64,000 nucleotides of DNA, taken from Salinivirgaceae bacterium (GTDB lineage Bacteria > Bacteroidota > Bacteroidia > Bacteroidales > SZUA-534). The stretch is taken from contig JAFVGW010000032.1 in NCBI GenBank assembly GCA_017474765.1, forward strand, positions 66,989-130,988, given 5' to 3'. A model generated the notes under the pieces. It worked only from the letters and a program-made list of their open reading frames with translations. It was not told the origin of the DNA and did not search any database. The position numbers and the translations under genes are program-made. Every line of letters starts with the position of its first letter. The first letter of the stretch is position 1. Positions 60,052-61,213 of this stretch are shown here, piece by piece.

Positions 60052-60453
60052 TTAGGCAAATTTCATACAATAAATCATTAAAAATGCAGAACCTAAATAG
60101 TGAACAACAACAAATAGTATTAACAAAAATCTCGGAAATTTTTCACTAAAAAATTTAATATACTCATACTGCTGTGTTGAATAAATATTCTTAAGCTTAT
60201 GCTTAATGCCAAAACAGATTAGTACTGTAATAATGAATATTATAACGCCAAATGTATAAGGAGAAAAATGCTTTAGGCATTCTCCTACTAAAGGTATGGA
60301 ATAAACAATCGGCAAAAGACAGTAAAACAACGACAATCCATTAAATCCCAATGGAATAGACAAAACAGTTAACCCTCTTTCCAATCGGTCTTCACATTTT
60401 TTGTAAACTGTACTGAAATATGCCGCCACAAAAAAATCAATAATCTTTTTCAT
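60052..60453 (-). CDS. cognate immunity protein (3-TM, 133 aa)
   Basis: MKKIIDFFVAAYFS.... Its start overlaps the Rhs toxin stop by 17 nt. Three hydrophobic helices. Confidence 0.8.
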   Translation of the reverse strand: MKKIIDFFVAAYFSTVYKKCEDRLERGLTVLSIPLGFNGLSLFYCLLPIVYSIPLVGECLKHFSPYTFGVIIFIITVLICFGIKHKLKNIYSTQQYEYIKFFSEKFPRFLLILFVVVHYLGSAFLMIYCMKFA

Positions 60454-61213
60454 CGTTGTATAATAGTTTTTGTCCCCAATTATCAGTTGCTTTGTCTATT
60501 TTTGTACCTAATCCACCTGCGGAACTAAGCCCGTAAATTGAAACAGCAATTGCTGTACCTAAAGCTGCTGGTGGGCAAAAAAGAACTATTCCTAAACCAG
60601 CCACACAAACACCTACATCAACAATTGTATGAGTATTAGCTTGACCAGTTTTGTATTCAATAAATGCTGTAGCAGCAGTAAAACCAGCTCCTATATACCC
60701 AGCCCAATTTGAAATGCCTTTCAGGGCATTAACTCCATATTTAAGTTTTTGCGCATCACTAAGGTGGCGGGCATTAAAAATAGAAGTTTGAGCACCTGCG
60801 CTTGCTATGTTTGCAATGTTTGTTGCCGTTGTAGTCGCAGTGGAGGCTATGCTGCCGCCAGAGCTACCATAATCTCCATTACTGCATCCTCTATCACGTG
60901 GCAGATTAATGGTTGTGGTATTGCCAATAATCTCATAAACTTTAACTTCGCCAGCAATCACATATACTTCACGATTATTATAACCCCGTATTTCATACCA
61001 ATAAGTAACCCAATGCCCTACTGTACTTGTTTCCAAAGTACCCCACGATTCACTCATGTTTGAAATTAACTGCTTGGTGATATTGGAAAAAGAATTGTTT
61101 ATCACATCTCCCCACGAATAGCCAGAGTTTCCACCTCCCTGTTTTTCATATTTTTGCATATAATTGCAAGAGCGTTTCAACCTTCTCTTTTCATCATCTA
61201 ATTCGGTAATACT
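60437..61213 (-). other. coding sub-region: variable C-terminal toxin domain of the Rhs protein (~258 aa)
   Basis: Everything downstream of VDPTGY. It ends in Gly/Ala-rich hydrophobic helices. No recognisable enzymatic motif. Confidence 0.7.

Follow-up and report, generated by a model that had tools for sequence, protein, structure and literature searches.

A 64,000-nucleotide stretch of contig JAFVGW010000032.1 from a Salinivirgaceae bacterium, referred to here as the window, carries on its reverse strand the 3' part of an Rhs gene. The variable C-terminal tip of the encoded protein is the subject of this analysis. Downstream of the tip lie four small genes in tandem, imm1 to imm4 (58400-60453, reverse strand), whose products are 35-72% identical to one another (Table 1). 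Several profiles identify the large gene as Rhs: Pfam RHS_repeat matches it in 8 stretches (3.9e-26), and NCBIfam contributes Rhs_assc_core (TIGR03696, 1.5e-18) and TIGR01643 (1.2e-16). The Rhs core closes at …NRYSYCLNNPLKYVDPTGY (…KYVDPTGY), and the tip begins directly past the final Tyr. From there to the stop it measures exactly 258 residues (60437-61213 on the reverse strand with the stop codon included), which confirms the extent given by an earlier reading of the DNA letters alone, the sequence-only reading, whose quoted peptide strings are all present. The locus displays the three hallmarks of Rhs/YD-repeat polymorphic toxins: YD/RHS repeats, a core with a DPxG[LY]-type motif followed by a variable tip, and an immunity gene directly downstream of a tip that is exchangeable between scaffolds.

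The tip is built from two modules of different ancestry. A homologue search with the whole tip finds only four relatives (P0001-P0004). Residues 1 to ~105 and the Rhs core end are common only to P0002, a sister Rhs tail, at ~70% identity, and beyond the shared module P0002 has an entirely different, GxxxG-rich C-terminus. P0001, P0003 and P0004 match only the last ~140 tip residues, and their upstream sequences differ. This pattern of sharing defines the toxin unit as tip residues ~120-258 rather than all 258. The sequence-only reading, which took the tip for a single 258-residue toxin, had the length right and the conserved unit too long, the latter being only the last ~140 residues. Residues 106-119, where the homology to P0002 stops and that to the other three relatives starts, likely form a recombination joint between scaffold and toxin cassette.

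The C-terminal unit belongs to a family of its own. A profile of the last ~140 residues, searched against 1.84 billion representative proteins at E <= 1e-3, recovers 59 clusters defined at 50% identity, among which 25 reach E <= 1e-10. The 59 comprise one spurious match, the beta-helix repeat protein P0047, and 58 true members. The domain match ends 0-9 residues from the protein C-terminus in all 58, which argues against a chance hydrophobic tail. In longer members the domain is typically preceded by an Rhs core end (…DPxG). For example, Pfam recognises SpvB, FG-GAP, TcdB_midN, RHS and DUF6443 in P0024 (2164 residues) and DUF6443 with RHS in P0031. The domain is also seen on different scaffolds and as orphan cassettes. 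Named sources are metagenome-assembled genomes (MAGs) of Salinivirgaceae, Marinilabiliaceae, Bacteroidales and Bacteroides, where the only annotations that members have are 'RHS repeat-associated core domain-containing protein' and 'hypothetical'. A tblastn search of the PLSDB plasmids with the domain gives no match, and a further homologue search with the family profile, capped at 8000 candidates, yields almost no additional members. On the evidence of these comparisons, the putative toxin domain is a new sequence family, previously unannotated and so far seen in Bacteroidota. The claim of a new effector family is borne out to this extent: the profile finds the 58 true clusters and no Pfam, NCBIfam or PDB family.

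Alignment of the family reveals conserved tip positions at G175, A183, E186, G190, N193-T194-H195-T196, V198-D199, G201, P214 and G219, and further along at G224 (Val in the window copy), Y227-G228, S231, G234, I239-D240 and N245-W246-G247. A separate observation concerns a Bacteroides sp. MAG (L012 ~9700-10900), in which the toxin domain is frameshifted right past the NTHT motif and an intact immunity-family member follows; this copy is either a pseudogene or an assembly error.

Structure prediction describes the domain as a bundle of helices. AlphaFold2 (AF2) was run on the whole tip with a 47-sequence alignment and a second time on the domain alone. In the whole-tip model residues 1-120 are of low confidence (predicted local distance difference test, pLDDT, 37-54), and the C-terminal domain reaches a pLDDT of 82-93 over residues ~170-250. 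The predicted domain helices span residues 123-147, 153-188, 194-212, 214-242 and 246-252, and the domain-only model has the same helices at a mean pLDDT of 78. The beta-rich segment that had been described in the first part of the tip is retained as four predicted strands, at a pLDDT of only 37-54. Most of the supposed G/S/T/A linker that was placed after it (residues ~120-147) turns out to be part of the conserved domain and is predicted helical.

Hydropathy singles out the middle of the bundle. Residues 192-229 (38 residues) reach 2.1-2.2 in the Kyte-Doolittle mean over 19 residues, well above the customary threshold for a transmembrane (TM) segment, and they are the sole stretch of the tip at TM-grade hydropathy. 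They fall largely within a predicted helical hairpin (residues 194-242), the N-terminus of which overlaps the conserved NTHTxVD motif (193-199); the second conserved motif, IDxxxxNWG, comes after the hairpin. Helix 165-188 is weakly hydrophobic (~0.7), and part of 153-175 is amphipathic. The two to three hydrophobic helices of the sequence-only reading are thereby reduced to the hairpin; the helix 'NWAGYIGAGFTAATAFIEY' peaks at ~0.7.

The same reading had described the helices as a Gly/Ala zipper, and this description does not survive. With a canonical zipper defined as (G,A,S)xxxGxxxG or GxxxGxxx(G,S,T), regular-expression searches find no canonical motif and no GxxxG in tip residues 151-258, and the number of small-xxx-small patterns is not above that of the shuffled sequence (p = 0.36). 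All matches to zipper motifs in the tip fall in G/S-rich linkers. At least one canonical motif is present in 33 of 46 relatives, mainly as the semi-conserved G224-x3-G228, of which the first Gly is Val in the window copy. 'Gly/Ala-rich hydrophobic hairpin' is accordingly the accurate term for the window copy, and 'glycine zipper' is not.

The gene after the toxin encodes a predicted membrane protein. Its product, imm1, is predicted from its charge distribution (positive-inside rule) to have an N-in/C-out topology. It belongs to a small, unannotated family (24 clusters) of ~120-140-residue proteins that begin with MKKIID…, have three TM segments and conserve N38, P107 and H118-Y119. A member of this family stands after the toxin, usually overlapping it, in eight independent loci (the window, L001, two cassettes in L004, L005, L011/L013, L012 and L017). 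P0048, from a distant toxin subgroup, is followed by a different 3-TM protein with marginal similarity only. The expectation of integral-membrane immunity proteins is supported by these findings, both by the three TM-grade segments of imm1 and by the strict linkage of the toxin to small polytopic membrane proteins.

A comparison of alleles suggests where toxin and immunity protein meet. The toxin of L001, a syntenic Salinivirgaceae MAG, is 100% identical to the window toxin over the first 50 domain residues, before helix 165-188, and again in the GQANTHTIVDVG motif, and in the tail it retains ~85% identity. Most of helix 165-188 and of the hairpin has been replaced, with indels, and the adjacent immunity proteins are only 44% identical. 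Allelic divergence that stays within the hydrophobic helices and has its counterpart in divergent membrane immunity proteins is what would be expected if recognition takes place inside the bilayer.

Table 1. Features of the Rhs locus and its immunity genes in the window
Feature	Coordinates	Strand	Evidence and remarks
Rhs gene, 3' part	60437..64000	-	open reading frame (ORF) continues past window end
Rhs-associated core end, self-cleavage-type motif (…GRFYDPLIGRFLSPDP…NNPLKYVDPTGY)	61214..61456	-	TIGR03696, translated-stretch residues 849-928
Tip residues 1-105, lineage-specific pre-toxin module	60899..61213	-	two helices and four strands predicted, pLDDT 37-54
Tip residues 106-119, Gly/Ser-rich junction (RDRGCSNGDYGSSG)	60857..60898	-	P0002 homology stops, P0001/P0003/P0004 homology starts
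Tip residues 120-258, conserved C-terminal putative toxin domain	60440..60856	-	profile search and AF2, five predicted helices
Predicted helical hairpin, residues 194-242	60488..60634	-	conserved Pro214 at turn; AF2 and hydropathy
imm1, presumed cognate immunity protein, 133 residues, three TM-grade segments	60052..60453	-	overlaps toxin stop by 17 nucleotides
imm2, orphan paralogue	59570..59968	-	48% identical to imm1, 73% to orphan copy in L002
imm3, orphan paralogue	59026..59418	-	protein identical to copy in Rhs-less L014
imm4, orphan paralogue	58400..58792	-	72% identical to imm3; uncalled in public annotation of same contig

Taken together, these features favour a domain that inserts into membranes, probably as a depolarising toxin, and that is neutralised within the membrane, a reading to which we give a probability of about 55%. 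For this domain we infer insertion, ion conduction, the site of action and cleavage alike. By analogy with Tse5 and TcC (PMC9637101), the aspartyl protease of the Rhs core itself would cut the tip at …DPTGY|, and the tip would be kept inside the Rhs shell. At the target envelope, two hydrophobic helices of ~20 residues each (194-212 and 214-242, with the Pro turn between them) would enter the cytoplasmic membrane as a hairpin, and the conserved polar motifs that flank them (E186, NTHTxVD and IDxxxxNWG) would end up together on the side of the bilayer from which entry occurs. The less hydrophobic helices 123-188 may act like the outer helices of a colicin-type bundle. The inserted toxin, probably oligomeric, would leak ions and the membrane potential would collapse. 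In the producer, imm1, as a ~130-residue inner-membrane protein with 3 TM segments, would protect by binding the hairpin within the bilayer.

Several observations weigh against this reading. AF2 modelled an isolated monomer, and the absence of a canonical glycine zipper from the window copy leaves it with no recognised oligomerisation motif. Hydrophobic helices and a membrane immunity protein suggest a membrane site and fall short of proving ion conduction. The well-conserved polar residues (H195, D199, S231, D240 and E186) could serve catalysis or the binding of a specific target. Membership of the colicin pore-forming family is rejected, as hhalign against five colicin/pyocin fragments gives a probability of 6.5% over 30 columns. 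The family is small and almost all of it comes from metagenomes. Finally, the Rhs gene in the window appears to be 5'-truncated and its product is perhaps never exported.

The last point depends on the upstream end of the gene, which can be read from L006. This is the same contig, 100% identical to the window over 13,949 nucleotides and reaching 1,929 nucleotides past position 64000. The Rhs ORF on L006 (523-5493) encodes at most 1656 residues; its earliest start is a TTG inside the FG-GAP repeats, and it has no signal peptide. The 3' end of an IS256-family transposase (NF048019, 3e-32; L006 2-346) sits 176 nucleotides upstream of the ORF, and the L006 contig terminates at this transposase fragment. 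Upstream of the RHS repeats lies an FG-GAP propeller (Pfam FG-GAP_3 1.4e-23, FG-GAP 4.6e-14), as in Rhs proteins of the TcdB/TcaC type; the signal peptide and SpvB domain of that type are not found in the longest possible Rhs ORF on L006. Both are present in a full-length homologue, the L011 Rhs of 2,083 residues, ahead of an FG-GAP region and RHS repeats. Residue 181 of the window protein aligns to residue 477 of this homologue, which indicates that ~300 N-terminal residues are gone from the window Rhs. The gene is probably truncated at its 5' end, either decapitated or interrupted.

These data also bear on delivery. Pfam detects no PAAR domain in the 1656-residue ORF, as would be needed for an effector linked to PAAR/VgrG from a type VI secretion system (T6SS), and no T6SS component among the ~20 large window ORFs that were scanned. 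In domain content the Rhs architecture is of the TcdB/TcaC trafficking type (PMC3482391) and not of the PAAR/T6SS type, and the T6SS framing of the sequence-only reading finds no support here. A neighbour of the full-length homologue deserves mention. Directly upstream of the SpvB-FG-GAP-Rhs gene in L011 (1987-2433) is a 148-residue protein that has a signal peptide, contains a YD-repeat-like motif (NIKFNYDACGNRVAK) and carries a C-terminal sorting domain of the type IX secretion system (T9SS; TIGR04183, 9e-11). This T9SS-tailed YD protein may be a clue to the export or tethering of such Rhs proteins.

Together with its relatives, the window locus has the traits of a toxin-immunity island. L014, on a 333-kb contig of a related strain, has between 8781 and 11721 the genes rpsF-rpsR-rplI, a 43-codon toxin remnant ending …WGQKLLYSDEKDY* and three immunity genes. 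Its downstream genes are the same as those in the window, and it has no Rhs at all. One of its immunity genes is identical to imm3 of the window, and another is of the P0002 type. Toxin-immunity cassettes occur as orphans in L004, L005 and L011, where they are in tandem. Orphan cassettes, four immunity paralogues and an Rhs-less relative are typical of polymorphic toxins.

Some further observations concern the immunity island itself. The region upstream of imm4 (58755-58896) is ~90% identical to L014 9895-10038, where the region downstream of rplI meets the toxin 3' remnant, and appears to be the fossil of an earlier toxin-immunity junction. A 208-residue signal-peptide protein with no family match (57523-58149, reverse strand) is conserved directly downstream of the island in every related locus, with 98% identity in L014. 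When two segments of the window, 20338-26164 and 52942-60480, are compared with L014, the Phosphodiest-C69-AnmK-M23 block is collinear and the immunity/TPR block is inverted, which points to an inversion whose breakpoint lies at the Rhs/IS256 locus. The rpsF-rpsR-rplI genes are not in the window.

This history allows for a relic. An IS256-associated rearrangement may have decapitated the Rhs gene and abolished export, so that only the immunity genes now matter, as a defence against the toxins of neighbours. Such a scenario is a serious contender, a little short of an even chance, and it concerns the activity of the window copy rather than the function of the domain family. It accounts for an earliest start codon, TTG, that lies within the propeller and 176 nucleotides after the transposase 3' end, for the signal peptide and SpvB domain that the 2083-residue homologue has and the window gene lacks, for an inversion relative to L014 that breaks at the Rhs/IS256 locus, and for an immunity island that persists in L014 without any Rhs. 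On the other hand, neither a frameshift nor a stop interrupts the 1656 codons that remain, and the overlap of toxin and immunity gene has been kept. Moreover, the contig stops inside the insertion sequence, so the 5' part could lie beyond it, and an internal start is also possible. The window copy may be inactive or not deployable, given that ~300 N-terminal residues are missing and that the gene abuts the IS256-family transposase fragment.

The remaining alternatives concern what the conserved domain does. One is that the hairpin inserts into the membrane and kills not through a self-sufficient pore but by binding a particular integral membrane protein or complex and blocking it, or by hijacking it, making the domain a membrane-anchored inhibitor or a receptor-dependent toxin. 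The conserved polar motifs at the hairpin ends (NTHTxVD and IDxxxxNWG) resemble a binding surface, and known membrane toxins often require specific membrane proteins: Bte2 requires Rnf (PMC12718326), and ionophores of the contact-dependent inhibition (CDI) systems require AcrB, SecY, YciB, PuuP or DtpA (PMC11630599). However, the parts of the domain that vary are the hydrophobic helices, and they co-vary with the immunity type, which suits recognition by immunity proteins better than recognition of a conserved target. No candidate target is linked to the toxin at any locus. This alternative, which is unlikely, also overlaps with the proposed membrane-inserting toxin, in that a receptor could merely assist pore assembly.

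Another possibility is a cryptic enzyme, such as an interfacial or intramembrane hydrolase that uses His195, Asp199 or Asp240, and Ser231 on a lipid, lipid II or other envelope substrate. Retention of H195, D199, S231 and D240 in 33-37 of 41 aligned members is compatible with a catalytic site, and a new fold could escape database matching. Searches for such an enzyme were negative throughout. The tip has no match in Pfam, NCBIfam or the PDB sequences, even at permissive thresholds (Pfam: 0 at E <= 1), and a PDB profile search with the domain family gives nothing below E = 0.5. Foldseek against the PDB yields a best E of 1.4 for the whole tip and, for the domain alone, five matches that all have E > 5 (best 5.2) and are all transmembrane helices of membrane proteins; against BFVD it returns nothing. 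Assignment to an enzyme was therefore rejected, since the tip gave no significant result in Pfam, NCBIfam, PDB sequence and profile, or Foldseek searches, and the 47 aligned members gave none in Pfam. The domain, with ~100-140 residues of long helices and Gly/Ala-rich hydrophobic stretches, is unlike known lipases or amidases, its 'YGxxSxxG' differs from the GxSxG nucleophile elbow, and its immunity proteins are polytopic in the membrane rather than soluble plugs of an active site. Given this lack of a match to any catalytic family or fold, a cryptic enzyme is highly improbable.

Barely credible is the proposal that the hairpin is only a device for translocation or membrane entry and that toxicity resides elsewhere in the tip, e.g. 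in residues 1-105: the T6SS DNase Tde1 does need a glycine-zipper segment for translocation (PMC10240207), CDI toxins do have separate entry domains (PMC11630599) and the N-terminal tip module is unexplained, but it is the C-terminal domain that travels with the immunity family, following many unrelated upstream sequences and occurring in short orphan cassettes, whereas the N-terminal module is found in two proteins only, with different C-termini and different immunity proteins.

The membrane-inserting, non-enzymatic tip put forward by the sequence-only reading thus fares better than its details. That reading had named beforehand what would speak against it, chiefly a match to an enzymatic fold or a failure to predict membrane-compatible segments. 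Computation produced neither: no recognisable enzyme motif emerged, and the predicted domain is all-helical with a TM-grade hairpin.

A bolder version of the membrane-inserting toxin can be formulated. The domain may be a minimal (~100-140 residues), self-inserting channel-former that has no detectable homology to characterised pore-forming toxins and could be very remotely related to the colicin hairpin. Its carriers would be Bacteroidota Rhs proteins of the SpvB/propeller type, which are exported by Sec and need no T6SS to act, and its immunity specificity would reside wholly in intramembrane helix-helix contacts. This combination is speculative and rather doubtful. If it holds, the domain would be a tractable small model for the membrane entry of Rhs cargo, and the Bacteroidota would have an uncharacterised contact-dependent delivery route, perhaps tied to the T9SS-tailed YD protein beside the full-length homologue.

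Few pore-forming interbacterial toxins have been characterised, examples being Tse4, Tse5, Ssp4, Ssp6, the VasX/Bte2/Tke5 family, CDI ionophores and colicins. In the literature searched, Bte2, a large effector of the T6SS, is the pore-forming interbacterial effector characterised from Bacteroidales. An independent sequence family would be added by a helical domain of ~140 residues that rides on TcdB/TcaC-type Rhs proteins and has a 3-TM immunity family dedicated to it. So compact a system would help to address how a hydrophobic cargo encapsulated by Rhs can be soluble and then insert into a membrane, how immunity operates within the bilayer, and by what means the Rhs toxins of Bacteroidota gain access to their targets in the absence of an obvious T6SS. 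Immunity islands that outlive their toxin, as in the Rhs-less L014 and in the window with its apparently decapitated Rhs, bear on how rumen and gut Bacteroidales gain defence against neighbours.

The scaffold is not limited to this one cargo. The P0002 sister tail (L002 2828-4473, and L003) has a glycine-zipper C-terminus with 12 canonical motifs, followed by a 179-residue immunity protein with 2 TM segments and then by an orphan imm1-family member. A glycine-zipper tail with its own 2-TM immunity protein suggests that the scaffold repeatedly bears membrane-type cargo. Two other genes of the window lie apart from the Rhs locus. A 4,986-residue ORF (139-15099, reverse strand) matches no Pfam family at E <= 1e-5 and may encode a surface or adhesin-type protein, and a gene at 19218-20261 (forward strand) encodes an RNA ligase domain joined to a PHA02142 OB-fold domain, a phage-type RNA ligase in a housekeeping neighbourhood.

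Known systems share parts of this arrangement. Polymorphic Rhs toxins of the TcdB/TcaC type consist of a signal peptide, SpvB, an integrin-like propeller and RHS repeats (PMC3482391). The full-length relatives P0024 and L011 Rhs have exactly this architecture, and the window Rhs has its propeller and RHS part, without the signal peptide and SpvB. Among polymorphic toxins, Zhang et al. 2012 catalogued Tox-WTIP as the only pore-forming toxin domain, in Proteobacteria only (PMC3482391). Its motifs, RxxR (helix 1) and Wx[ST]IP (helix 2), are absent from the window tip. Toxins of the Bte2/VasX family (PMC12718326) depolarise membranes and are found in Bacteroidales, as is proposed for the window domain. 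They are, however, large multidomain T6SS effectors in contrast to an Rhs tip of ~140 residues, and no similarity was found.

The CDI ionophores (CdiA-CT of E. coli EC93 and relatives; PMC11630599) resemble the window tip in having a variable N-terminal module followed by a small, membrane-spanning predicted helical bundle. In these ionophores and their CdiI partners, toxin variation is concentrated at the expected immunity-binding site and the immunity proteins are highly polymorphic (PMC11630599), a pattern similar to that of the window and L001 alleles. Enterobacteria deliver CDI ionophores through CdiA/CdiB two-partner secretion, whereas the carrier in the window is Rhs. No sequence similarity to them was detected, no CdiA-sized protein is among the profile matches, and the five helices constitute a loose likeness.

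The likeness to the colicin-type pore domain (PF01024: colicins A, E1, Ia, Ib, N and B, and pyocin S5) is one of design. The C-terminal half of that domain and the window domain have the same order of elements: a K..G..G helix, an acidic/aromatic residue, a polar loop, a hydrophobic helical hairpin of ~40 residues and a short tail. Residues 194-242 correspond to the ~40-residue central hydrophobic hairpin of colicins by analogy, not by membership. Colicin immunity proteins are small polytopic inner-membrane proteins with 3-4 TM segments, like the window immunity family. Colicin immunity specificity also maps to membrane-inserted helices. The two domains differ in size (~100-140 residues and five helices in the window, ~200 residues and ten helices in colicins) and in carrier, which for colicins is a bacteriocin with receptor-binding and translocation parts and in the window is Rhs. 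In the PDB profile search with the family, pyocin S5 appears at E = 2.2, a weak, non-significant and collinear match, and Pfam Colicin is weakly matched by 2 of 47 family members (best E = 0.004). Ten full-length family members show no Colicin match in Pfam and Foldseek returned no colicin. What is left is a resemblance only.

A close counterpart is Tse5 (RhsP1) with Tsi5 from Pseudomonas aeruginosa, in which a C-terminal fragment of ~149 residues forms ion-selective pores (PMC9637101, PMC10684867). Homology to Tse5-CT (Ile1169-Gln1317) was not detected, as no Tse5-like protein is among the 59 clusters from the 1.84 billion representatives; of the Tse5 chains, the shell 8cp6_B (1121 residues) was confirmed among the PDB sequences and the C-terminal one was unconfirmed. 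The systems differ in delivery, since Tse5 has a PAAR-like N-terminus and depends on VgrG4 and the H1-T6SS, whereas the window Rhs has a TcdB/TcaC-type FG-GAP propeller. They also differ in the immunity protein, with 2 TM helices in Tsi5 as opposed to 3 in the window family, and in host, Pseudomonadota as opposed to Bacteroidota. What they have in common is an Rhs shell that bears a self-cleavage motif, a small C-terminal fragment of TM and amphipathic helices for which no enzyme function is predicted, and, immediately downstream, a small integral membrane immunity protein. An Rhs-borne pore-former paired with a membrane immunity protein is already known from Tse5/Tsi5 (PMC9637101), and the novelty of the window domain is its sequence family, not the principle.

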